Of a stretch of DNA of 64,000 bases, positions 23,519 through 44,184 are shown one piece after another. Numbering within the stretch: the first letter of the stretch is position 1; every line of letters starts with the position of its first letter. The translations under genes and the position numbers were made by a program. Source of the DNA: Heliomicrobium sp. (GTDB lineage: Bacteria; Acidobacteriota; Blastocatellia; RBC074). The notes beneath the pieces were generated by a model. The model ran no database searches and was not told where the DNA came from. It saw only the letters and a list, made by a program, of their open reading frames with translations. The stretch spans positions 8,378-72,377 of the forward strand of contig JAJNQA010000112.1 of assembly GCA_021155085.1 (NCBI GenBank), read 5' to 3'.

Positions 23519-25990
23519 TCAGCGGAAATTCTCCATCTTCCAAATCTTGGTTGTTGCAGACTGTTTGCTGAAGAAGAGGCTTTTTTGATCCGGCGACCAG
23601 GCAAGTCCGGCGTAACGCATCTGCGAATCCTTGTTGTTCGTGAGTTTTCTCAAGCGGCGGTCATCAAGCGAAACTTGCCAGATGTTGTCGCATTTGTCTT
23701 GACGTGCGACAAATGCAACCGTCTTGGCATCAGGGGAAAGCCGCACACTGTTGAAATAGACTGAAGGGAGTTTTGCAATTGGCCCGGTTTCCTGTTGGCC
23801 GGGGGTAAGCTGTACCAATTCCATATCAACAATTGCTCCGGGCATTTCGGGCGCAACCAGCCCCGCCAAAAACTTGGTTCCACCCGCGGCCCATCCCACC
23901 ATGCGAATACGCAAATCGGTTTGAAGCAGCGTCTGCTCTCTGCCGCCAGCCGCATCGCGTTCGTTCATCAAAACGCTTCGGGGAATCCCTTTCAATCTGG
24001 AAGTCTGTGCCAGATAAGCTAACCGTTTTCCATCCGGTGACCAAATCGGACTCAGTAGTTGCAATCTGGGATCATTGTTATTTGAAATCATGATTTCCGC
24101 ACCGCCATCGGCGGGAACCGTCCAAATATTGATGACCTTTTCATCAATCGCACTAAACGCCAACAGGTCACCCTTCGGCGACCAACTGTAATTGTGGGGC
24201 TGCGCCCAATCGCATAAATTCGGGTTAAATCCATTGGTGACCAGTAATTTTTGCGTTAATTGCCGTTGATCAGCGCCATCGCTTCTCATCATCAATAAAT
24301 TGCTAAGGCTGCCTATCGTGCGGAGAAATGTCAGTCGCTCTGAATTTGGTGCCCAACGCGCATCAAATCCTTTCGCAAGTTGTTTATTGGCCGCGTTCTT
24401 GGCGTCAGTGCCTCGAGTCCAAATCAATCCTTCTAAAACCTGACCTTCGCTGGCAGCACGATGAAACACGATGTTTTTCCCAAGTGGCGAAACCTCTGGC
24501 AAGACTTCCAACAGGGCGTCCGAGGTAAACTGGCGTTCACTTCCCGTCACCAAATCCAGACGATAAACATCAGCCTCTCCCGTTAAAGTCGCATAGAAAA
24601 TTTTTCGCCCATCCAGTGATATGTGAAGCGGTTGGCCGTTTTCGTTAAAGGGAATGAGCTGGATTGGTGGGCGGCCATCCAAGAAGGCAACACAAAGCTG
24701 ATAAGAATCACCCCGTTTGGAGCTATAGAGAATTTGTTTACCGTTCGGGAACCAGGTCGGATAAACATTTATTTCGCCATCACTCGTGACTTGTTTTGGA
24801 GTACTGCCATCAAGCGGAGCGATGAAGATGTGGGCAGATTTGTTGACTGTCTCAACATAGGCGACTGATTTTTCGTCCGGAGAAGGAGTAAAATTGCGTC
24901 TGATCGGCGCGGATTCATCGAACTTTGTCAGTGGAATACTTTGACGAGTTTTCAAATCAAGGACAAGCACGTTTCGAAGGGTGACATAATAAATTTTAGT
25001 CCCGTCCTTCGACCAATTCAGCAATCGCACGTAAGCGTCATCGAACGAATGGATTTTCTCGCCTTTACCGCCAAATAAAGGCGTAACCCAAACTTCAAAA
25101 TAGTTTGGACGCGCAGAAAGGTAGGCGATTTTTTGATTATCCGGCGACCAAATGGGACTTAAGTCAGGCCACTCATCTTCGGTAATGGGCCTGGCTTCAG
25201 TACTGGCAATTTGTTGAACGTAAATGTCCGACTGCGCAGATTCACTTTTTGAAAAAGCAATGAAATTTCCATCTGGCGAAGCCTGAACTGACAACAAGTC
25301 CGATCCCAGCCCGGTTTTCCAGCTTGCAATCGCTTTAGTTTCCAACTTAGTCAGGTCGAAATCGCTGGAATCTTTACGAAGTTTGAACCAGAAAAAGAGT
25401 GCGGCCAGCGCTAAAAGTCCCACGGCTGCCAGTCCCCCTAGGTAAACTCTGACACGAGAGTTTGAAGGCCTTGGCACCGGAAAGCTCTCCGGGTTTGAGA
25501 GCACTGGCTTGGAGAGGAAATCGTTTGCGACTTCCACCTTGGCCATTGCGGAAGCTGTCGAATTCGCCTGCTCTGACGGAATAGCAGCGGACGTAATCGG
25601 GGTAGTTTGCCGGATTACCTTGGGAGGAGTAACTGTGATTTCCTCAACTGGATGAACGAATCGGTAGCCGAGTTTCGAGTGCGTGACAATATATTTATCG
25701 TTTTCCCCTGCTGACTTGTCCTGCCCATTCCCTCTGGTTGTATTCGCCAGCGTTTTGCGAAGGAAGGAAATATTCTTGGAAAGATTGCTCTCCTCCACTG
25801 ATATTTCCCCCCAGATATGCTTCATCAAATCGTCTTTCGAGACGACGGTCCCCCGGTGTTCAACCAGGAACAACAAAATCTCGAAAGCCTTCGGAGTCAA
25901 TGATACGTGGTCTTCGTTGTACAGCAGGGCTCGCTGCCGCAGATCCAAGGAAAAATTGCCAAACCGCAAAAGACTGATAGGACTTGACAT
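23519..25990 (-). CDS. CadC/OmpR-type winged-helix DNA-binding domain, one TM segment, and a periplasmic TolB-like WD40 beta-propeller. A membrane-bound one-component regulator.
   Basis: N-terminus RFGNFSLDLRQRALLYNEDHVSLTPKAFEILLFLVEH (trans_reg_C). TM helix LGGLAAVGLLALAALFFW. Repeated SPDG.FIAFS, SPDNQKIAYLS and SPDEKSVAYV blades. Confidence 0.7.
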   Translation of the reverse strand: MSSPISLLRFGNFSLDLRQRALLYNEDHVSLTPKAFEILLFLVEHRGTVVSKDDLMKHIWGEISVEESNLSKNISFLRKTLANTTRGNGQDKSAGENDKYIVTHSKLGYRFVHPVEEITVTPPKVIRQTTPITSAAIPSEQANSTASAMAKVEVANDFLSKPVLSNPESFPVPRPSNSRVRVYLGGLAAVGLLALAALFFWFKLRKDSSDFDLTKLETKAIASWKTGLGSDLLSVQASPDGNFIAFSKSESAQSDIYVQQIASTEARPITEDEWPDLSPIWSPDNQKIAYLSARPNYFEVWVTPLFGGKGEKIHSFDDAYVRLLNWSKDGTKIYYVTLRNVLVLDLKTRQSIPLTKFDESAPIRRNFTPSPDEKSVAYVETVNKSAHIFIAPLDGSTPKQVTSDGEINVYPTWFPNGKQILYSSKRGDSYQLCVAFLDGRPPIQLIPFNENGQPLHISLDGRKIFYATLTGEADVYRLDLVTGSERQFTSDALLEVLPEVSPLGKNIVFHRAASEGQVLEGLIWTRGTDAKNAANKQLAKGFDARWAPNSERLTFLRTIGSLSNLLMMRSDGADQRQLTQKLLVTNGFNPNLCDWAQPHNYSWSPKGDLLAFSAIDEKVINIWTVPADGGAEIMISNNNDPRLQLLSPIWSPDGKRLAYLAQTSRLKGIPRSVLMNERDAAGGREQTLLQTDLRIRMVGWAAGGTKFLAGLVAPEMPGAIVDMELVQLTPGQQETGPIAKLPSVYFNSVRLSPDAKTVAFVARQDKCDNIWQVSLDDRRLRKLTNNKDSQMRYAGLAWSPDQKSLFFSKQSATTKIWKMENFR

Positions 25991-26642: not shown

Positions 26643-28775
26643 TTAACCGATCAAAGCCGGTTTCAGCAAATATTCCTGCAAGTTATAGGGCTTCGCATCC
26701 GAAGTGCGCGGGCGGGAATAGGTTCCGTCCATTTGCAGCCAGCGCATCTTTACGTTGTCTTCCAGCGATGGTTCCAGGATTTCCTGGATGATGCGTTCTT
26801 TCAGGCGCGGGTCTTCGATAGGAAACATGACTTCGACGCGGCGATCCAGATTACGATTCATCAGGTCGGCGCTGCCCAGATAAATTTCTTCGTCGCCGCC
26901 GTTGATGAACCGGTAGATGCGCGAATGCTCCAGAAAGCGCCCGACGATGCTGCCCACGCGGATGGTCGAGCTTCTGCCCGGCCAGCCCGGACGCAGACAG
27001 CAAATGCCACGAACAATCAAATCTATCGGCACGCCTTCGCGTGAAGCCGAGTACATTTCCTCGATCATCCCGGCGTCAGTAAAACTATTGAATTTGGCAA
27101 CGATGCCTGACGGCCGTCCGGCCTGATGATGCCCGATTTCGCGGCGAATCATTTCGGTGAAACTCTGTCGGAGATTGACCGGGGCAACCAGCAATTTACG
27201 ATAGCGTTCCTGCCGCGAATAGCCGGTCAGATAGTTGAACAGTTCGGAAACGTCCTTGCCGAAATTATCGTCGCAGGTCAGCAAACCCAGGTCAGTATAA
27301 ATGCGCGCCGTCACGGGGTTGTAATTGCCCGTGCCCAGATGCACGTAGCGGCGAAGTTTGTTCTTTTCCTGCCGCACCACCAACGTCAGCTTGGCGTGCG
27401 TTTTCAATCCGACCAGCCCGTAAACCACATGCGCGCCGGCCTGTTCCAGGCGTCTGGCCCATTGGATGTTGTTCTCTTCATCAAAACGGGCTTTCAATTC
27501 GACCAGCACGGCGACCTGTTTGCCATTTTCGGCGGCTTCGATCAGGGCTTCGACGATGGGCGAATCCTTGCCGACGCGGTAAAGCGTCTGTTTGATGGCA
27601 ACGACATTTTGATCACGCGCGGCCTGGCGCAGCAATTCGACGACCGGCGCAAACGATTCGTACGGTTGATGCAGCAGAATATCCTGCGTGCGAATGGAGT
27701 CGAAGATGGATTGGCCCGTCTGTAAACTCGCCGGTGTGGTCGGCGTAAACGGCAGGTCTTTCAACTGCGGCAGGTCGAGTTTGTGAAGCGACATTAAATC
27801 AGGAATATTGAGCGGCCCGTCCACTGTGTAAACATCCTGCTCTTCCATCTCCAGGGAATTGCGCAGCACCTTGATCATGCGTTTGCTCATGTCGGTTGCG
27901 ACTTCCAGCCGCACGCCGAAGCCGAAACGCCTGCGCCGCAGTTGCAGTTCGACGGTCTTGAGCAAATCCCCTGCCTCGTCTTCTTCAATTTCAATGTCGG
28001 CGTCGCGTGTGATGCGGAACGGCTGGCATTCCAGAATCCGCATGCCGGGAAAGAGCGATTCAATGTGCGCGGCCATCACTTCTTCCAGCATGACGAAGCA
28101 GTGGCCGTCGCCGCGCGCCGGAATCAGCCGCGGCACATTCGGCGGAAGTTTGACGCGGGCGAAACGGCGATCCTTTTCGTTCTCGTCGGGATTTTCCGGC
28201 ACGACCAGAATTCCCAGATTGAGGCTGATGTTTGAAATGTAGGGAAACGGATGACTGGGATCCACCGACAGCGGCGTCAGAATTGGAAAGACGCGTTCAT
28301 AAAAAAACTCCCGCATCTCCTTGCGCTGGTCGTCATTCAGTTCTCCGTAGGGCACGATCCGCACGCCATGGTGTTCCAATCCGGGCAAAATCTGTTTGCG
28401 CAAACAGCGCATCTGCACCTTCAGCAATTGATGCAGCCGTTCGGCGATCAGCCGCAGTTGCGTCGCAGGGGTCAACCCGTCCGGCGACAGCGTCATCGGG
28501 TTGGCTTCAAGCTGTTCCTGCAACCCCGACACGCGGACCATAAAAAATTCGTCGAGGTTGGTCGAAAAAATCGAAAGGAATTTCAGCCGCTCCAGCAGCG
28601 GCTGTGTCGGATCAAGCGCTTCATCCAGCACGCGGCTGTTGAATTCGATCCAGCTCAGTTCGCGATTGATCAGCGGATTATCGGCCAGGGAGCCAGTGCC
28701 TCTTCTTTCAACAGGCAAGACAACGGAAGTTGACGGGGCGGGAGACATTACTAAAGCCAGCGGAGCTGTTTCCAT
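26643..28775 (-). CDS. ppk: Polyphosphate kinase 1
   Basis: [13 protein letters not shown]...[13 protein letters not shown]...[12 protein letters not shown] and two PLD-like C-terminal domains. 710 aa. Confidence 0.9.
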
Positions 28776-33852: not shown

Positions 33853-34226
33853 GGTCGAATCTTCACTCCATTATTTGTGCTGCGACGAAAAAAACTCGCG
33901 CCACAGACCAAACCGCACTTGGAAACCCAAGGCAGCACTAAGTAACTGGTGGGAAGTTCGGGGCACTTTTTGTGGAACAAGATGCCATCTTGTCCCACAT
34001 TCGCGGCGCGAATTTTCCGCACCTTACTTAAAACGACAATTTGAGCGCGAATTGAATCTGGCGAGGTGTGTGGATTCCCGCCGTCGCGGTGATCTTACCG
34101 TAGTTCGCGTTTCCGAATGAAGTGTTCGGATGCACGAAAACCGTCTGATTCGGCAAATTGAAGGCTTCGATTGAATGCTTGAACCGGCCTGAGGCGCGGA
34201 CTATGATCCGCGCCGAAGAGGCTTTG

Positions 34227-37200
34227 ATGATCCCCAACAATTACGAACTCATCCAATACCTTCCGCTCAACGATTGGCAATGGTTTGCCCGTGGGCGGCG
34301 CATTTCCAGCGGCCAATCAGTGCTGCTCAAATCGCCACGCAGGGAAAGTCAGGGAGAAGGCGAACTGCTCGAACGCGAATTCGAATTGCTGCGCCAGCTT
34401 TCCGTGACGGGCATTCCCCGCCCGCTGGAGTTACTCGACACGGACAACGGCCTGTGCCTGGTGCTGGCTGACGGCGGCGTGCCGCTGCCGTCAGCCTTTC
34501 CGGCTGGCCGCCTGGAGTTGAAGACCTTTTTCAAACTCAGTCTTCAATTGGCGAACATTCTGGCCGAACTGCACCAGCGGGACATTATTCACCGAAACCT
34601 GAACCCGCGCGGCATTTTGCTGAATCCCGCAACCGGCGAAGTCTGTCTGGCGGATTTGAGCCTGGCGGTGCGCGCGGCGGATGAAATCCAGGAAGCGCTG
34701 CCAGCCCATCTGCTGCGCGGGATGCTCGCGTACGCTTCGCCGGAATTGACCGGAAGAATGAATCGCGCGGCGGATTACCGCACGGACTTTTATTCTCTGG
34801 GAATCACATTTTATGAATTGCTGACAGGCCGGTTGCCGTTTGATTTCACGGACCCGCTGGAATTGATTCACGCGCACATTGCCAAAACGCCGGAACCGCC
34901 CGCCAAAATTGATTCGCGGATTCCCGAACCGCTTTCCGAGATCATCATGAAGCTGCTGGCGAAAACCGCGGAGGATCGGTATCAAAGCGCACTCGGGTTG
35001 CGCGCCGACCTGGAAACCTGCGCCCGTGAATGGACCACGCGCGGACAAATCGAAGCATTCAAACTGGGCCGGCGCGATGTCCCGGATCGCTTCCTGATTC
35101 CACGGAAACTGTATGGCCGGGAGCGGGAAGTAGCGGAATTGCTCTCTGCGTTCGAGCAAACCTGCGAAGGCCGGACGTCAATGATGCTGGTGGCGGGTTA
35201 TTCCGGCATCGGCAAGACCTCGCTGATTCAGGAACTCTATAAACCCATTGTCCGCCAGCGCGGATATTTCCTTTCCGGCAAATTCGATCAGGTGGCGCGC
35301 AGCGTTCCCTTCGGCGCATTGATTCAGGCTTTTCGCGGTCTGGTGCGGCAACTGCTCGGCGAAAGCGAAGAGCAGCTCGCCCGCTGGCGCGCCCGATTGT
35401 CCGAAGCGCTGGGCTCAAACGGAGGCGCGCTGGCCGAGGTGATTCCGGAAATCGAACTGATCGTCGGCAAACAACCTTCGCCGCCCCGCGTCGGGCCGGC
35501 CGAAGCCTTGAATCGCTTTCAACTCATCTTTCAAAAATTTGTCTCCGCGATTGCCCAGCCCGGACGGCCGTTGGTGATCTTTCTAGATGACCTGCAGTGG
35601 GCGGACGCCGCAACCCTGAGCCTGCTTCAGCCTTTACTGTCCGGCGCTGACATTCAATCGCTTTTCCTGATGGGTGCATACCGCGACAACGAAGTGGATG
35701 CCGCTCATCCGCTAACGCGAACGCTGACTGCGCTGAAATTAGCGGGCGTTGAAGTACGCAGCATTTCTCCGGGGCCGTTACAGCTTCCCGAGCTGACGAA
35801 CTTCGTCACCGACACGTTGCGCTGTAAATTTGCGGAAGCTGCGCCACTGGCCCGGCTGGTTTGGGAAAAGACCGCCGGCAATCCGTTCTTCGTCATCCAG
35901 TTTCTGAAAACGCTCAAACAAGGAGATCTGCTGAAGTTCGATTATGAGCTTGGCCGCTGGACCTACCGCCTGGAAGACATCGTGAACGCGGGCGTCACCG
36001 ACAATGTCATCGCGCTGATGACGCAGAAGATTCAGCGGCTTTCCACCGAGGCGCAGCGCGCGTTGACGCTGGCCTCCTGCATTGGGAATTCCTTTGACCT
36101 GCCGACGCTGGTCATCGTCAGCGAACAATCGCCGGAAGACGCAGCGGAAGCGTTGAAAGAAGCAGTCGAGGAAGGATTGATCCTGCCGGTGGTAGAAGAA
36201 GACGGAGGGATGGGGCGACGGGGGGACGGGGGGACGGGGGGATCAGTGGAGATAGTAAAAGATGGAACAAATGATTTGTCTTTTTCGCCCCGTCGCCCCG
36301 TCCCCCCGTCCCCCCGTCCCAGTGCCTTCCCATCCCAATCCTACGCGTTCCTGCACGACCGCGTGCAGCAAGCCGCTTACGCACTGATTCCCGAAGAATG
36401 GAAGCAGCTTGTTCATTTGGCCGTCGGGCGATTGCTGCGCGACGGTTCCCCGCCGGAAGAACTCGAAGAAAAACTGTTCGACATCGTTCATCACCTGAAT
36501 CTGGGCAGCGGTTTGATTGTCGAAGCGTCTGAACGGCTGGCGCTCGCCCGCCTGAACCTGAACGCGGGACGGAAAGCGAAATCGTCAACGGCTTATGAAT
36601 CGGCGCGGGAGTATTTTCAGGCGGGCGCGGCGCTGCTCGGCGAAGAGCATTGGGCAACCGAGTACGAACTGGTTTTCGCGCTGCAACTGGAACTGGCCGA
36701 ATCCTTGCGCCTGTGCGCAGAGTTCATTGAAGCGGAAGCCGCGTGCGAACCTCTGCTGCGGCGCGCGCGGACCAAACTGGATCAAGCCCATGTTCACAAC
36801 CTGCACATTCTTCAATACGAAAATCAGTCGCGATATGCGGACGCGATGGTCAGCGCGCGCCGCTGCCTGCCGCTTTTCGGCGTCGCGTTTCCTGATTCCG
36901 CTGATGAACAAGAGTCCGCGCTGGAACGCGAGATTGCGACGATTCAGTTTTTGCTGGATGACCGCCCGATTGCCGCGCTGATCGAACTGCCGCTGATGAC
37001 CGATCCGGAAATCAAGATGGTTATGAACCTGCTGACGACGATCTGGTCATCGGCGTATATCTCCGGCCAGCAGGCGCTGACCCGGCTGATTTCCGCCACC
37101 ATGGTGCGCCTGTCGCTGATTCACGGGAATGTGGAAGAGTCCGCCTACGGTTATGTCACGCACGCGATTACCGTCGGCCCGGAGCGCGCGGATTACAAAT

Positions 37201-40200
37201 CAGCTTATGAATTCGGTTTGCTGGCGCTGCGGCTGAACGAACGGTTCAACGATTCGCGGCTGCGCGCCAAAATTTACCAGCAGTTTCAGGCGCACGTCAT
37301 GCCGTGGCGGCAACCGCTCGAAACCTGTCTGACTTATGCGCGAAAGGCGAGCCGCAGCGGATTTGAGAGCGGCGATTTTGCTTATGGGATTTATGGCGCG
37401 TTCACCGAAACCTGGACGGCCCTGGTCATTGCGCAAGACCTGGGCAAGTTCGTGCTCGAATATTCGCCCAATGTGGCGCTGTTCAAAAAGCTGAAAGCCG
37501 AGGCCATCGCCGATGGTCAGCAAATCCTGCTGAACTGGGCGCGCGCCCTGCGTGGCGAAACCAATGCGCCGCTGTCGCTATCGGACAAAAACTTCGATGA
37601 AGCGGAATACGTCCGGCGTTATCGCGGCAATCCGTTTTACACGATGTTTTTCGCGGCGGCGAAACTGCACCTCAGTTACCTGCTGGGGGAATACAAGCAG
37701 GCGCTGGAAGCTGCCCGGCAGGCGCGCGAAATCGTCCATCACCTGTCCGGAACCATCTGGACGGTTTTCTTCGATTTCTGGAATGGCCTGACCCTGGCCG
37801 CAAATTACGCGGAAGCTTCGGGAGAAGAACAAACGAAGCACCTTCTGGAATTGAAACGCGCGCGAAATTCACTGGCACTGCTGGCGGAAAACTGCCCGGA
37901 AAATTTCCGCTGCCAGTCACTGCTGCTTTCGGCGGAATGCGAGCGCATCGCCGGTCAGGAAAATCAGGCAGCCAACTTGTACGAGCGCGCCATCCGCCAG
38001 ACTGAAGAAACAAACGCCATCCAGTATCGTGCCCTGGCCAACGAGCTTTACGCGCGGTTTCAAACAGTGGCCGGGCAGGAAACCGCCTTGGCTCCGCTGC
38101 TGGCTGAAGCCCAGGCTTGTTACGGACGATGGGGCGCGGCAGCCAAAGTGGACCAGTTGAATCAACAATCTCCCGGGTGGGACAGGCTTCAGTCTGTCTT
38201 CAGCCGCGAAGGAAGCGTACGAACTGAAATCCGTTCCACAGCGGACGCAGGCGCGCTTGATCTCTTCAGCGTTGTAAAAGCCTCTCAGGCCATCGCCAGC
38301 GAAATGGAATTGGAGCGATTGCTGGCCCAACTGATGCGCATTGCCATTGAAAACGCCGGCGCGGAGCGTGGCTGTTTGCTGCTGGAACGCGGCGGCGACT
38401 GGTTCGTTCAGGCGGAAGGCTCCGTGAACGATGCGGAGGTGACGTTGCACGATGCATTGCCGCTCGGCGAATCCGCGAACCTGTCTTTAAGCATCGTCAA
38501 CTATGTCCGCCGAACTTCGGAGGGCGTCGTTCTGACGGAAGCGGCAAGCGACGACGGTTACGGCAACGATCCCTACATCGCGCGCTGTCAGCCGCGTTCG
38601 GTGATGTGCGCGCCCGTGCTGCGTCAGGGCCGCTTGATCGGCGCGCTGTATCTGGAAAACAACATCGCCGGCGGCGCCTTCACCGAAGCCCGCATTCAGA
38701 TCATTCAACTCCTGGCCGCGCAGGCTGCGATTTCTCTGGAAAACGCCCGGCTGTATCGCGAAATGCAACTGGCGGAATCCACGCTGCGCTCGGTGATGGA
38801 AGGCACTGCGGCAATGACCGGCGAGGATTTTTTCCGTTCAATGGTGCGGCATCTGGCCGCCGCCATTCCAGTCAAAATCGCCTTCGTCACGGAATGCGCC
38901 AACGTCCAGAAGACCCGCGCGCGAATGCTGGCTTTCTGCGACGGCAAGGGCCTGGCCGAAAATTTCGAGTACGACGTCAAGCACACCACCTGCGAAAAAG
39001 TCTACGAAGGCCACACCTGCACCTACGCCAGCGACATCCAGAAACTGTTTCCCGAAGAACCGGCGCTGCTGGAATTGGACGGGCAGAGTTACATCGGCCT
39101 GCCGCTGCACAGTAAAGCCGGGGAACTGATCGGCCATCTGGCGGTGATTGACGACAAGCCGATGGATCAGGGGCGCAGCAGTTCTATTCTGGACGTTTTG
39201 AAAATTTTCGCCGCCCGCGCCAGCGTCGAACTGGAACGCACGAAGGCCGAAGCCGAATTGCGTCTGGCCATGCAAGAAATCGAAAGGCTGAAGAACCGGT
39301 TGCATGCAGAAAACCTTTACCTGCAGGAAGAAATTCGCCGCGAACACAATTTCGAGGAAATCGTCGGCGGCAGTCCCGCCCTGCTGGAAGTGCTGCAACA
39401 GGTCGAGCGCATGGCGCCCACCGATGCCACGGTGTTGATTCTGGGCGAAACCGGAACCGGCAAGGAATTGATCGCCCGCGCCATTCACGACCGCAGCCCG
39501 CGCCATTCGCGCCCGCTGGTCAAGGTGAATTGCGGCGCGATTTCCGCCGGACTGGTCGAAAGCGAACTCTTCGGCCACGTCAAAGGCGCATTCACCGGCG
39601 CGCTCGATAAACGCACCGGAAGGTTTGAACTGGCCGATGGCGGCACATTGTTTCTGGATGAAGTCGGCGAACTGCCGCTGGAAACGCAGGTCAAACTGCT
39701 GCGCGCCCTGCAGGAAGGCGAATTCGAGCCAGTCGGCAGCAGCAAAACCATCAAAGTCAATGTCCGAATCATTGCCGCCACCAACCGCAATCTGGAAGAC
39801 GAGGTCAAAGCCGGACGCTTTCGCGCCGATTTGTTTTACCGCCTGAATGTGCTGCCGCTGCACAATCCGCCGCTGCGGGAGCGCCGCGCGGATATTCCGC
39901 AACTGGCAATGTTCTTTCTGTCGCGTTTTGCACGGCGGTTCGGCAGATCAATCAACGGCATTTCGCAGGAAACCATGGAACGGCTGATGAATTACAACTG
40001 GCCGGGCAACATCCGCGAACTGCAAAACCTGATTGAACGCGGCGTGGTGCTCAGCAACGGTTCGGCGCTGACGATTGACCGCAACCTGCTGCCCGCCGCG
40101 CAGACAACCGAAATCCAGCCTAAATCCGCAATCCAAAATGAAGTTCCGCCGGCAGTTCCCATTTCGCTGGATGACTTGCAACGCCAACATATTCTCAATG

Positions 40201-40322
40201 CCCTGGCGCAAGCCAACTGGGTGATCGAAGGTGAAAACGGTGCCGCCAAGCTGCTCAATTTGCATCCGAACACGCTGCGCAGCCGATTGAAAAAAATGGG
40301 AATTCAGCGTCCCAAACTTTAA
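34227..40322 (+). CDS. Giant (~2030-aa) signalling protein: Ser/Thr protein kinase - AAA_16/STAND ATPase - helical (TPR-like) region - 2x GAF - sigma-54 interaction AAA+ domain - Fis-type HTH
   Basis: Kinase motifs ([20 protein letters not shown]). Walker [16 protein letters not shown] domains around aa 1370-1700. bEBP motifs [14 protein letters not shown] and ESELFGH. C-terminal [15 protein letters not shown]. Start is at 34203 or 34227 (AAGAGG ribosome-binding site before 34227); the ORF track start is 34158. Confidence 0.85.
36212..36320. repeat. In-frame 109-bp palindromic insert inside the giant gene. A G4-motif arm and a mirrored C-rich arm flank a 46-bp AT-rich spacer.
   Basis: 36212-36241 GGGGCGACGGGGGGACGGGGGGACGGGGGGG (four or more G-runs). 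36288-36320 CCCCGTCGCCCCGTCCCCCCGTCCCCCCGTCCC. The spacer GC is about 30 %. Translation is [12 protein letters not shown]...[12 protein letters not shown], a low-complexity linker. Confidence 0.7.
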
Positions 40323-40356: not shown

Positions 40357-40417
40357 CCCACGAAATTTCGCGGGAGCGAGTTCCATAGCCACGAACCAAC
40401 CCACGAAATTTCGCGGG
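40357..40417. promoter_or_regulatory. Two copies of a near-palindromic 18-bp element (CCCACGAAATTTCGCGGG) spaced 43 bp apart. Candidate enhancer (UAS) for a bacterial enhancer-binding protein.
   Basis: Repeat 1 at 40357-40374 and repeat 2 at 40400-40417. Each is one mismatch from a perfect palindrome. They lie about 90-140 bp upstream of a sigma-54 promoter. Confidence 0.5.
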
Positions 40418-40550: not shown

Positions 40551-40820
40551 ATGCTTCGAATTGCGGAAGAAAAAGGGACTGATGGTTCAACGATCTTGCA
40601 ACTGGATGGACGCATTGCCGGTCCCTGGGTGGAGGTGTTGCGCGCAAGCTGCGAACGAATTTCCCAGGAAAACAGCCGAGTGGTTCTTGATTTACTCGGC
40701 GTCAGTTTCGCGGATCACGTCGGCGTAAGATTTCTTCAGCAACTCGATCAACAGCAAATCGCGCTCATCAATTGCTCGCCGTTTTTACAGGAGCAAATGA
40801 AATTGTCTATGACCGAGTAA
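40551..40820 (+). CDS. STAS-domain anti-sigma-factor antagonist (SpoIIAA-like)
   Basis: MLRIAEEKGTDGSTILQLDGRIAG...VVLDLLGVSFADHVGVRFLQQL. 89 aa. Confidence 0.7.
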   Translation: MLRIAEEKGTDGSTILQLDGRIAGPWVEVLRASCERISQENSRVVLDLLGVSFADHVGVRFLQQLDQQQIALINCSPFLQEQMKLSMTE

Positions 40821-41438: not shown

Positions 41439-42803
<1,365 letters not shown>

Positions 42804-43814
42804 TCTACACTCCGCTGGCGGCCAGTGTTTCGGTGGCCGCCGCCGCCATTTCCACCTTGGGCAGCCAGATTGTAAATACAGCGCCGCCTTCAACCAGCAT
42901 GGCAGCCAGCATGGCAGCCAGCATGGCGGCCAGCATGGCGGCCAGCATGGCGGCTTCGATGAAACCGCCAGGCTCTTCCACGATACGGCGCGATCCGAAA
43001 TCAGAAGCACTGAAAATGGCTTGCCGTCTCGCGGGAATCCCTGTTCCGAAACTTTGACACGCAAATGGCCGCCTATTTTCATTGCCTGCACGACATTCAA
43101 ACAAATATTCATCAACACCTGATGCAGTAACTCTCCGTCCGCAAGAATCCGCTCCTGGCTGTGAGCAAGACACTCTAGCTGAATTCCTGACTTCGCGGCG
43201 CCGTCTTCGATCAACTCAAAAACGCCCTACACCAATGAAGCGGCGTCCACCGGTTCGCAATGATTACTGAACGGACTCCCCAGATTCAGCAGTTCCCGCA
43301 CGATGCGGGCAATGAACATCGGCCTGATGATTGATGCTTGACAGATTGCGTTCGACTTTTTCGCACGGCGTATCCGTGCGTTCGCGCAATAGTTCGATGC
43401 GGCCCTTGATGACATTGCGCGGCGCGCCCATCTCGTGCGCGACGCCCGCGGCCAGCCGTCCCAGCGAAGCCAGCCGTTCGGCCTGCAGCAGTTGCTGTTC
43501 CAGCGCCAATCGCTCTTCCGCCGCCTGGACAATGGCCTGACGCTGTTCGCCCAGCCGATCCGCCATCCGGTTGACAGCGAAAACTCATTCCAACGGCCCG
43601 GCACGATGACGCGGTAATTCAGGTCGCCTTCGCCCAGCGCCGCCGCGCCCGTCAGCAACTCCTTGATTGGCCGCGCCAGATTCGTGCGCATCACCACCAG
43701 CACGCCCAGCAAAATTACCGCAAACAGCGTCAAGGTGAGCAATGCAATATCGCGGCGCGCGCGCGAAATCAGCCCGGATGAGCGAGCGCGGCTGCGTGAT
43801 TTCAAATGCCCCAC
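42804..43814 (-). pseudogene. Degraded sensor histidine kinase (TM + HAMP + HisKA + HATPase_c split across two frames, with an internal stop)
   Basis: HAMP in frame A (43227-43814). HisKA H-box [12 protein letters not shown] in frame B (43264-43566). HATPase N-box NICLNVVQAM back in frame A after a TAG at 43227. G2/C-terminal part FGTGIPA...GGAVFTIWLP in frame B (42805-43173). That implies at least 3 frameshifts, plus what looks like a truncated sensor N-terminus. Confidence 0.5.
42894..42953. repeat. 12-bp tandem repeat CCAGCATGGC(A/G)G x5 inside the kinase remnant
   Basis: Five contiguous units. They translate as AAML x5 (kinase frame), PPCW/LPCW x5 (RR-ORF frame) or MAAS x5 (plus strand). 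Confidence 0.8.
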
Positions 43815-44184
43815 GCTGCGCCTTGCGAAGTTGCACCGGCATGATGATTGAAAAAACTTCCCGCTTGCCGATGCGCCGCACCAGTTCCGCCGTCCAGTAT
43901 CGTAACAGCAGAATCAGTCTTGTGCTTGTACCCATCGGTTTTTCCCGCCCCTCCCGGCAGAGCAATTCCGCTGCCAGGCAAAATCCCCGGACTTTTGCCG
44001 CTTTCAGCGACAGCCTTGCCCTTTTTCGCCACATGCTTCCCCGCCCGCGGCGAGCATGATTTTTGGCCATCACCTTTTCTTCACAGGGAATAGCCTGCCA
44101 GATTACTGCTGGCACGGGAGTTGTCATTGAGATTCGTGACAATCAAAAAATGATTTCTTCATTTTTGATGTCGGGAGAACTGCC

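Follow-up and report, generated by a model that had tools for sequence, protein, structure and literature searches.

Gating of a bacterial enhancer-binding protein (bEBP) normally falls to a single small sensory domain such as REC, GAF, PAS, V4R or CARF. Autoinhibition by the GAF domain is an established mode of control in GAF-regulated bEBPs (PMC2941729; for PexR, PMC12754779), and in Pseudomonas syringae the bEBPs HrpR/HrpS activate the sigma-54 promoter of hrpL, a gene for an extracytoplasmic function (ECF) sigma factor of group ECF32 (PMC8999054). Kinase-like domains have been described in other settings: the CP1 (pseudo)kinases are cytosolic, all linked to a COG3899 predicted ATPase and, in many cases, to FhlA or PAS modules, with approximately 40% of the members being pseudokinases (PMC12599244; bioRxiv 10.1101/2025.01.12.632604); HstK-type dual kinases of cyanobacteria display the order Pkinase-AAA_16-GAF-(PAS)-HisKA-HATPase_c, and in PknK of Mycobacterium tuberculosis the N-terminal kinase precedes a MalT-like region (PMC1262709). 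Here, we analyze a 64,000-nucleotide stretch of contig JAJNQA010000112.1 (hereafter, the window), in which a single gene encodes a 2,031-residue protein (hereafter, the giant protein) with approximately 1,700 sensor residues ahead of a sigma-54 AAA+ core, comprising a predicted pseudokinase, a STAND ATPase, a repeat arm and 2 GAF domains. The most informative feature of the locus, which escaped an earlier note made from the sequence alone, lies just downstream of this gene and consists of a conserved candidate enhancer, a sigma-54-type promoter and an operon for a STAS-domain protein and an ECF sigma factor. We consider it reasonably likely that the giant protein is a cytoplasmic multi-input bEBP which heads a cascade from sigma-54 to the ECF sigma factor.

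One open reading frame (ORF) without an internal stop spans positions 34158–40322 (+ strand), within which the ATG at 34227 was chosen as the start because most homologues begin with MIP or MTP; residue numbers count from this codon. Pfam searches along 34227–40322 recovered Pkinase (residues 24–253, 69.5 bits), AAA_16 (residues 294–480, 160 bits), GAF (residues 1361–1504, 75.7 bits), Sigma54_activat (residues 1712–1878, 254 bits), AAA_lid_14 (residues 1884–1952) and HTH_8 (residues 1981–2023, 26.1 bits against a cut-off of 22 bits), and, read from its N-terminus, the complete protein consists of Pkinase, AAA_16 (STAND), helical repeats, GAF, divergent GAF, Sigma54_activat and HTH_8. The fusion and the domain order read in the earlier note were thereby borne out, with profile-level support for both Pkinase and Sigma54_activat, as was its reading of the output as a sigma-54 module with an intact GAFTGA loop and a DNA-binding helix-turn-helix (HTH) domain. 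The protein is cytosolic, with no transmembrane segment. When proteins were searched, at least 120 clusters (defined at 90% identity) came up; most of them have 100% query coverage and the same Pfam set, at 53–96% identity to the giant protein. Family members are mostly proteins from metagenome-assembled genomes (MAGs) of Acidobacteria/Blastocatellia/Pyrinomonadaceae which are named "sigma 54-interacting transcriptional regulator," and homologues in JGI carry COG3899 and COG3604 names. Thus, the rarity ascribed to the architecture in the earlier note was overstated, the more so as the linkage of CP1 to FhlA has already been reviewed (PMC12599244); the architecture has been catalogued by bioinformatics and is not rare, although it is not experimentally characterized.

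The C-terminal third of the giant protein resembles NifA, FhlA, NorR and PexR, in which a GAF domain is likewise followed by a helical linker, an AAA+ domain with GAFTGA and a Fis-type HTH. All bEBP motifs, that is, Walker A, GAFTGA, Walker B, R-finger and sensor II, are intact, and the closest solved relatives in the PDB are NifA of Azotobacter vinelandii (the best match, 8e-95) and ZraR (2e-86). The best NCBIfam match, over residues 1578–2030, is to the nifA model with 424 bits against an equivalog cut-off of 529; the giant protein reaches no equivalog cut-off and is not an equivalog of NifA, FhlA or NorR. It further differs from these proteins and from PexR by approximately 1,500 extra N-terminal residues, which accommodate the pseudokinase, STAND and repeat regions as well as a second GAF domain. 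At the level of sequence, every feature by which a bEBP is recognized is present, and open-complex formation is predicted.

The spacer between the giant gene and the STAS gene is 228 bp long in the window and contains 2 identical copies of the palindrome CCCACGAAATTTCGCGGG, our candidate enhancer or upstream activating sequence (UAS), located 85–145 bp upstream of a −24/−12 element. This palindrome occurs only twice in the 64 kb, both times in the spacer, against 0.14 occurrences expected at the setting that allows up to 3 mismatches, and its core 14-mer is restricted to the same 2 sites. Scanning genomes with the helical region specific to this family yielded 79 loci. Where enough downstream DNA was available, genes for STAS and ECF proteins were found within 1.5 kb at 23 of the 30 loci with a sigma-54 output but at none of the 31 loci with other outputs (Fisher's test, 5e-11, uncorrected for phylogeny). 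The same-strand order activator-STAS-ECF is shared by the window and loci L001, L002/L003 and L004, where the activators are 68%, 60% and 55% identical to the giant protein, respectively. The density of exact CCCACGAA octamers reaches 2.69 per kb over the 450 bp that lie downstream of sigma-54-output genes, 73-fold the 0.037 per kb seen elsewhere in the loci, and a GG-N10-GC element (TGGCAY-N5-TTGCW) precedes the STAS start by 30–43 nt (mode 36) in approximately 22 of 26 orthologous loci. Consistently, footprint alignment of diverged spacers leaves 4 conserved islands, corresponding to UAS1, UAS2, TCGTGGC-N7-TTGC, and the ribosome-binding site (RBS) with the start codon.

The enhancer sequence varies with the lineage of the activator. 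Loci from Pyrinomonadaceae and other Blastocatellia carry 2 copies of (G)TCACGAAATTTCGTGA(C), whereas in Gemmatimonadales (L019, L022, and L014) TTCCCAA..TTGGGAA replaces CACGAAA..TTTCGTG at the same position; the HTH of the latter is only 44–47% identical, and the distance from the sigma-54 promoter to the STAS gene is kept. As judged from these comparisons, a shift of the enhancer sequence with the HTH clade is the behavior expected of a cognate enhancer. The linkage of giant gene, UAS, promoter, STAS and ECF genes recurs in MAGs of Acidobacteriota and Gemmatimonadota and in one MAG labelled Candidatus Eisenbacteria.

The STAS gene starts with an ATG at 40551 behind a strong RBS, and its product scores 17.9 bits against the anti-sigma antagonist model TIGR00377 (cut-off 53). 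The position of the phosphorylated Ser of SpoIIAA/RsbV holds no phosphorylatable Ser (ADHVG in the window, with H-V; AD[HR][ED]G in orthologues), for which reason the STAS protein is not a classical phospho-regulated anti-anti-sigma factor; 2 conserved Cys residues (..SCE.. and ..NCSPF..) are kept. Neither an RsbW-type kinase gene nor an anti-sigma gene adjoins the STAS gene in the window or in the L001, L002 and L004 loci. The STAS protein may act back on the activator or serve as a partner of the ECF sigma factor. The ECF sigma factor comprises regions 2 and 4 only and matches TIGR02937 with 93 bits (cut-off 42.9) and TIGR02947 with 142.6 bits, below the cut-off of 251.55, so that no equivalog cut-off is reached. 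Its closest solved structures are SigH (1e-29) and SigE of M. tuberculosis, with weaker partial matches to SigR of Streptomyces coelicolor; beside the ECF gene, the window has no zf-HC2 (ZAS anti-sigma) gene, no anti-sigma gene is conserved at this place, and the protein does not qualify as a SigH/SigR (ECF12-type) sigma factor. The arrangement resembles HrpRS-hrpL in that the ECF gene has no adjacent cognate anti-sigma gene, so that the ECF sigma factor would be controlled at transcription (PMC8999054). By contrast, HrpR/HrpS have no sensory domains and form a hetero-hexamer, whereas a single giant multi-sensor protein is encoded here, the ECF sigma factor in the window is SigH/SigE-like rather than HrpL-like, and the STAS gene is co-transcribed with it.

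In 3 distantly related genomes, the trio of activator, STAS and ECF genes lies within a gene set that recurs in shuffled order (L001, 6196–25162; L002, 3432–26114; L004, 3856–25772), which includes genes for a GMC oxidoreductase, a two-domain glyoxalase, a GH63/MGH1-like hydrolase, a GDE-type debranching enzyme, an FMN reductase, an MIP channel, and ADH/SDR, YHS and HbpS-like proteins. This set may represent an ECF regulon or a stress island; a check of the window for its members (GMC oxidoreductase, glyoxalase, GH63-like hydrolase, GDE, FMN reductase, MIP channel and others) found none of them.

The region behind the kinase-like domain is organized as a STAND protein. The Walker A and Walker B motifs of the STAND domain are intact and, like the GNPFF and FLHDR motifs, invariant across the homologue alignment, and the AAA_16 region has a parallel beta/alpha topology in the AlphaFold2 (AF2) model. 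The helical and winged-helix elements that follow presumably correspond to the respective STAND sub-domains. The winged-helix part is interrupted by a hypervariable loop, the length of which differs in every homologue and the sequence of which is wholly different even from that of the 96%-identical homologue P0001. The GACGGGGG and CCCCGTCC repeats within it are roughly each other's reverse complement, and several homologues contain insertions resembling CGLRIADCG / PQSAIRNPQS at this place; the loop seems to tolerate the insertion of repetitive DNA. The sensor arm beyond the loop is built of helix pairs throughout, with a predicted local distance difference test (pLDDT) score of mostly 75–93, and is conserved in 97 of 97 homologues; it has no match in Pfam. 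The AF2 model of residues 1–1190 (mean pLDDT 77.7) displays, in order, a kinase fold, a P-loop alpha/beta domain, a helical/winged-helix region, a disordered loop and a helical-repeat solenoid; as modeled, the region is thus laid out like a STAND NTPase that carries a repeat sensor. In common with MalT/LAL proteins and PknK, the giant protein has a helical-repeat sensor behind a P-loop of the AAA_16 type that bears Walker A and Walker B (DD) motifs. It differs from all of them in that no sequence relationship to any solved STAND structure was detected, with searches of the PDB by the STAND and helical region, whether run from one sequence or from a profile, returning only P-loop-level noise. 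Furthermore, MalT/LAL proteins end in a LuxR-type HTH serving sigma-70, whereas the giant protein carries a second, AAA+ ATPase for sigma-54, and, unlike in PknK, its kinase domain is predicted to be inactive.

Of the 2 GAF domains proposed in the earlier note, the first is confirmed by Pfam, whereas the second, as it stands in the window, gives no Pfam match with the threshold relaxed to E ≤ 10 and became apparent through its homologues, 12 of 22 of which match GAF or GAF_2 in this region (best E, 4e-7). Its profile weakly matches the GAF domain of PtsP (3ci6) and, in hhalign, aligns in register to the C-terminal portion of GAF1 (E 1.3e-3, with a probability of only 18%), and the AF2 model shows an alpha/beta domain with pLDDT of approximately 80–90. 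Based on these profile and model data, we accept it as a divergent GAF domain, GAF2. In the AF2 model of residues 1340–2031 (mean pLDDT 69), a long helix joins the 2 alpha/beta domains and a second long helix enters the AAA+ core; a fold search with this model returned only bEBP AAA+ domains and no match for GAF2. Within residues 1555–1643 (38889–39155), C1557, C1589, H1637 and D1642, the latter being the first Asp of IGHLAVIDD, are invariant, and C1598 is approximately 90% conserved. By analogy with NorR and PexR (PMC12754779), this Cys3-His-Asp cluster could form a metal, Fe-S or redox site. The GAF domain proximal to the AAA+ core is highly divergent, and the candidate Cys3-His site is unlike the published ligand sets of NorR or PexR.

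These features can be combined into a mechanism. We infer that the C-terminal HTH_8 domain binds the 2 CCCACGAAATTTCGCGGG palindromes past the stop codon of its own gene, for which the comparative support is strong, and that the AAA+ ring, through the GAFTGA loops, would remodel the sigma-54 RNA polymerase at TGGCAT-N5-TTGCA, about 100–150 bp beyond the palindromes. The output would be the two-gene operon, that is, the STAS protein and the ECF sigma factor, within a cascade formally like that of HrpR/HrpS and hrpL. As in NifA, NorR and PexR, GAF2 and the helical linker may keep the AAA+ core inactive until a signal arrives, with the Cys3-His-Asp cluster possibly binding a metal or sensing the redox state and GAF1 possibly acting as a second ligand-sensing module. 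The pseudokinase would serve as a non-catalytic regulatory or interaction surface, with no phosphotransferase activity. Self-association of MalT is driven by its ligand and ATP; similarly, the STAND NTPase and the helical arm of the giant protein could act as a nucleotide-dependent switch, self-association of which would drive assembly of the AAA+ ring. That the STAND, repeat-arm, GAF1 and pseudokinase inputs converge on hexamer assembly through nucleotide-dependent self-association is the most speculative step, drawn by analogy, and we put it forward tentatively, as an idea that may well prove wrong. More doubtful still is the full picture of a "two-engine" activator, in which a signal-controlled STAND oligomerization switch, read via the pseudokinase and the helical arm, would assemble the sigma-54 AAA+ ring, the Cys-rich GAF domain would exert a redox or metal veto, and the STAS protein would feed back or hold the ECF sigma factor; if true, it would amount to an undescribed NLR-like input to sigma-54.

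The earlier note proposed that a eukaryote-like kinase steers sigma-54 in cis, and the corresponding alternative would have an active Hanks-type Ser/Thr kinase at the N-terminus, with auto- or trans-phosphorylation gating the AAA+ core. The fold search with the N-terminal model does recover a kinase fold, and part of the active site is kept, with the beta3 Lys (K35) in 90, the alphaC Glu (E51) in 96 and the Asp of the DFG position (D143, as D-L/F-S) in 85 of the 97 aligned family members; the SPE and DxYSLG motifs are retained as well, and the C-lobe is better conserved than the N-lobe half. Canonical motifs (VVLKV / HKDLKPxN / DFG) are found in relatives from Myxococcota. In the giant protein, however, the Pkinase alignment begins only at profile position 19, the Gly-rich loop GxGxxG is absent, with P-L-N-D-W-Q in its place (family consensus [SAG]-R-N-D-W-[QY]), and the catalytic loop reads HRNLNPRG rather than HRDLKPxN, so that the catalytic Asp and the loop Lys are both replaced by Asn and the Mg-binding Asn by Gly. 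Across the 97 members, the catalytic position is occupied by N in 51, S in 13, G in 10, H in 6 and D in just 5, the loop Lys by N, S or T, and the Mg-binding position by S in 50, G in 17 and N in 16. Because this loss of catalytic motifs is conserved across the 97 homologues, we assign the N-terminal domain, on its motifs, as a catalytically dead pseudokinase, in agreement with the published classification, which puts such CP1 members among pseudokinases. Phosphorylation control by this domain is thus very unlikely, and an active kinase was rejected for the giant-protein clade on account of the degenerate catalytic and Gly-rich loops. The conserved pattern of degeneration instead suggests a scaffold or ligand-binding role.

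A different concern, raised in the earlier note, is that the ORF could be an assembly chimera, here one in which a kinase-STAND gene was wrongly joined to a gene for a GAF-bEBP near 36200 or 38200. A low-complexity, repeat-rich stretch at 36201–36320 and lower conservation at the junction between the helical region and GAF1 (residues ~1320–1360) would fit this view. Yet conservation is unbroken along the whole protein in the 97-homologue alignment, the sole gap-rich stretch (gap fraction 0.36–0.44) being residues 641–720 (nt ~36150–36390), where the repeats sit in the loop that varies in length across all homologues with the reading frame kept; the GC content is even across the gene, and most of the independent clusters cover the entire query with the same Pfam set. 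Furthermore, a 96%-identical gene is present on 3 independent metagenome assemblies (L084–L086) with the same neighbors as in the window, in the order PQQ dehydrogenase, giant gene, 89-aa STAS, 179-aa ECF sigma factor and convergent REC-type bEBP, followed by PRC, GT2-HAD, AhpC and VIT-VWA genes. With conservation continuous and independent assemblies concordant, we rejected a chimeric origin, the probability of which is negligible. It is also highly improbable that the giant protein is an anti-phage STAND (Avs/NLR-like) defence protein with the kinase-like or AAA+ domain as effector: a STAND module with an accessory domain at its N-terminal end and a repeat sensor at its C-terminal end does recall bacterial NLR-like proteins, and there are domain-level PADLOC matches, but the latter are confined to the generic kinase and the RtcR-type AAA+ domain, with none on the NTPase or the repeats, the output is a complete bEBP with a putative cognate enhancer and promoter, and the neighbors are housekeeping or stress genes rather than a defence island; the defence reading was rejected given that the PADLOC matches are to generic domains only. 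The alternative closest to the locus itself is that the downstream sigma-54 promoter is served by another activator, for example, the convergent REC-AAA+-HTH bEBP at 41439–42803, and that the giant protein acts on distant targets. Indeed, a second bEBP is encoded directly past the ECF gene in the window and in L084–L086, and 7 of the 30 sigma-54-output loci have no adjacent STAS-ECF pair or promoter, so that adjacency is not obligatory. However, the NtrC-type neighbor is absent around the trio in L001, L002 and L004, and it is a weaker candidate for the promoter because it is not conserved beside the trio in other genomes, whereas the giant gene, UAS, promoter, STAS and ECF genes remain linked across phyla and the UAS sequence varies together with the HTH clade of the giant protein. 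We therefore regard control by another activator as unlikely.

Several observations nevertheless count against the giant protein as a non-catalytic, STAND-controlled activator of the STAS-ECF operon. The pair-less loci include L005 and L006, the closest non-conspecific relatives, and a scan of the 7 such loci for an alternative nearby promoter or UAS recovered none, save UAS-like remnants in L028. Taken alone, the −24/−12 match falls short of significance in the window, where 3 matches were seen and 3.3 expected; rpoN is not located in the 64-kb window, and a search upstream of the recurrent neighbors for SigH/SigR-like GGAAT-N-GTT promoters, meant as a lead to the ECF regulon, found nothing recurrent. 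The AAA+ part of the C-terminal AF2 model is low in confidence, and the top matches of the N-terminal model in the fold search are all kinases, with no solved STAND structure among them. Some Gemmatimonadales members with a sigma-54 output retain HKD..N, which also speaks for an active kinase, and the pseudokinase of the giant protein may bind nucleotides, given its beta3 Lys, alphaC Glu and DFG Asp. Finally, no function has been assigned to any member among CP1 pseudokinases and COG3899 STAND modules (PMC12599244).

The N-terminal half of the giant protein, by motif and architecture resemblance, fits the CP1 pseudokinase/COG3899 class. Shared features are the kinase-like domain, the COG3899-type ATPase and the FhlA-type module (GAF, sigma-54 AAA+ and Fis HTH), together with variably degraded motifs, which read VLIK / HKSLCPGN / DFS in a Leptospira member and LLK / HRNLNPRG / DLS in the giant protein. 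The CP1 proteins (O'Boyle et al., 2025) have been reported mainly from cyanobacteria and proteobacteria, whereas the clade of the giant protein is from Acidobacteriota and Gemmatimonadota, and the published CP1 work comes without a target, a cis-element or a function. The HstK-type proteins share the sensor chassis through GAF1, with 31–65% identity in the STAND and helical parts among the relatives compared, and differ in their histidine-kinase output, in place of which the giant protein has GAF2, the sigma-54 AAA+ core and the HTH. Four relatives end in HisKA/HATPase_c, in line with the histidine-kinase outputs which the earlier note had named for the Pkinase-AAA_16-GAF chassis, and STAS-ECF genes were found downstream of histidine-kinase-output relatives in 0 of 31 loci. 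Their kinase domains are also degraded differently, with the VAIK (beta3) Lys and the DFG Asp lost and HKD..N kept.

One histidine-kinase-output homologue, 53–56% identical in the STAND and helical regions, is encoded by an isolate, Variovorax sp. MHTC-1 (L031), and may reflect horizontal transfer. In addition, Blastocatellia-like copies of the gene, 57–75% identical in the query region, are found in MAGs labelled "Heliomicrobium," "Heliobacteriaceae" or "Clostridia" (L005, L010, L020, L024, L028, L036, and L038). These labels are probably taxonomic mislabels, because all of these MAGs are binchicken co-assemblies.

A literature search found no paper joining Pkinase and Sigma54_activat, neither STAS nor sigma-54 comes up in the main text of the ECF classification paper, and a 2025 survey of sigma-54 regulons mentions neither Acidobacteria nor ECF. 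The conserved association between the sigma-54-output version and both an enhancer and a sigma-54 promoter, the operon of STAS and ECF genes which that promoter drives, and the coupling of a STAND switch to the sigma-54 AAA+ engine all appear to be undescribed. The locus offers a testable read-out for a CP1 pseudokinase and COG3899 STAND module, consisting of an enhancer, a sigma-54 promoter and a two-gene output, and a single sensor chassis wired to either a histidine kinase or a sigma-54 activator constitutes a natural domain-swap experiment. A recurrent sigma-54-to-ECF cascade is suggested in abundant and poorly studied soil phyla and, if confirmed, would be a stress cascade widespread in soil Acidobacteriota and Gemmatimonadota. 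The protein itself is less surprising than the earlier note held, because its kinase is dead and its family common.

Table. Coordinates in the window of the features of the giant gene and of the operon downstream of it.
Feature	Position	Strand	Evidence
Gene for the 2,031-aa pseudokinase-STAND-GAF-GAF-sigma-54 activator (stop codon included)	34227..40322	+	ORF, translation, Pfam and NCBIfam domains
Predicted pseudokinase domain, aa 1–272	34227..35042	+	Pfam Pkinase, motifs
Retained beta3 Lys in LLKS	34323–34334	+	
Degenerate catalytic loop HRNLNPRG	34590–34613	+	
DLS replacing DFG	34650–34664	+	
STAND-type P-loop NTPase (AAA_16), aa 294–513	35106..35765	+	Pfam 160 bits, weak nSTAND6/nSTAND1 matches
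STAND Walker A GYSGIGKTS	35196–35222	+	Read from sequence
STAND Walker B	35574–35606	+	Read from sequence
Helical and winged-helix region of STAND module, aa 520–655	35784..36191	+	AF2 secondary structure, invariant residues
GxP-like motif AGNPFF	35874–35891	+	
Hypervariable disordered loop, aa 657–702	36195..36332	+	Tandem Repeats Finder (TRF), pLDDT <50
In-frame 8-mer tandem repeat GACGGGGG, x5	36201–36242	+	TRF
In-frame 8-mer tandem repeat CCCCGTCC, x4	36288–36320	+	TRF
Conserved motif (36348–36380), then all-helical TPR-like repeat sensor arm, aa ~711–1330	36348..38216	+	AF2
GAF domain 1, aa 1361–1504	38307..38738	+	Pfam 75.7 bits, AF2 pLDDT 75–90
Divergent GAF domain 2, aa ~1533–1642	38823..39152	+	Homologue matches, AF2
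Long helical linker from GAF2 to AAA+ core, aa 1648–1705, with invariant stretch	39168..39341	+	AF2 continuous helix, invariant columns
Sigma-54 interaction AAA+ core and lid, aa 1712–1952	39360..40082	+	Pfam, NCBIfam, PDB, Foldseek
AAA+ Walker A GETGTGKE	39444–39467	+	
GAFTGA, aa 1787–1792, invariant in homologues	39585–39602	+	
AAA+ Walker B LFLDEVGE	39648–39671	+	
R-finger stretch	39819–39851	+	
Fis-type HTH_8 DNA-binding domain, aa 1981–2023	40167..40295	+	Pfam
Candidate enhancer (UAS) copy 1, palindrome CCCACGAAATTTCGCGGG	40357..40374	.	Repeat count, footprint alignments
Candidate enhancer (UAS) copy 2, identical palindrome, 43 bp downstream of copy 1	40400..40417	.	
Sigma-54-type −24/−12 promoter TGGCATcgctaTTGCA (TGGCAT-N5-TTGCA), 35 nt before the STAS start codon	40500..40515	+	
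STAS-domain protein, 89 aa, RBS AGGAGAAGGAGAG upstream	40551..40820	+	Pfam STAS 27.3 bits (cut-off 22.6)
ECF sigma factor, 179 aa	40895..41434	+	Pfam Sigma70_r2, Sigma70_r4_2

The REC-AAA+-HTH (NtrC-type) bEBP past the ECF gene is encoded within 41439–44142 (− strand), and its true start probably lies near 42803, because the protein has 454 aa in L084–L086. It is preceded by apparent histidine-kinase remnants: ORF 43227–43814 contains a HAMP fragment, a HATPase-like stretch is joined in frame with the bEBP ORF, and the 12-bp unit CCAGCATGGCGG is repeated 5 times in tandem at 42894–42954. The histidine kinase beside this bEBP looks genuinely degraded, because near-identical assemblies call only ORFs of 54 aa and 95 aa at the remnant. 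A sigma-54-like site, TGGCAGCGGAATTGCT, is located at 43976–43961 (− strand). Elsewhere in the window, an 823-aa protein (23519–25990, − strand) combines an N-terminal OmpR/PhoB-type winged helix (Trans_reg_C) with TolB-like PD40 beta-propeller repeats, and its gene is adjoined by that for polyphosphate kinase 1 (26643–28775).

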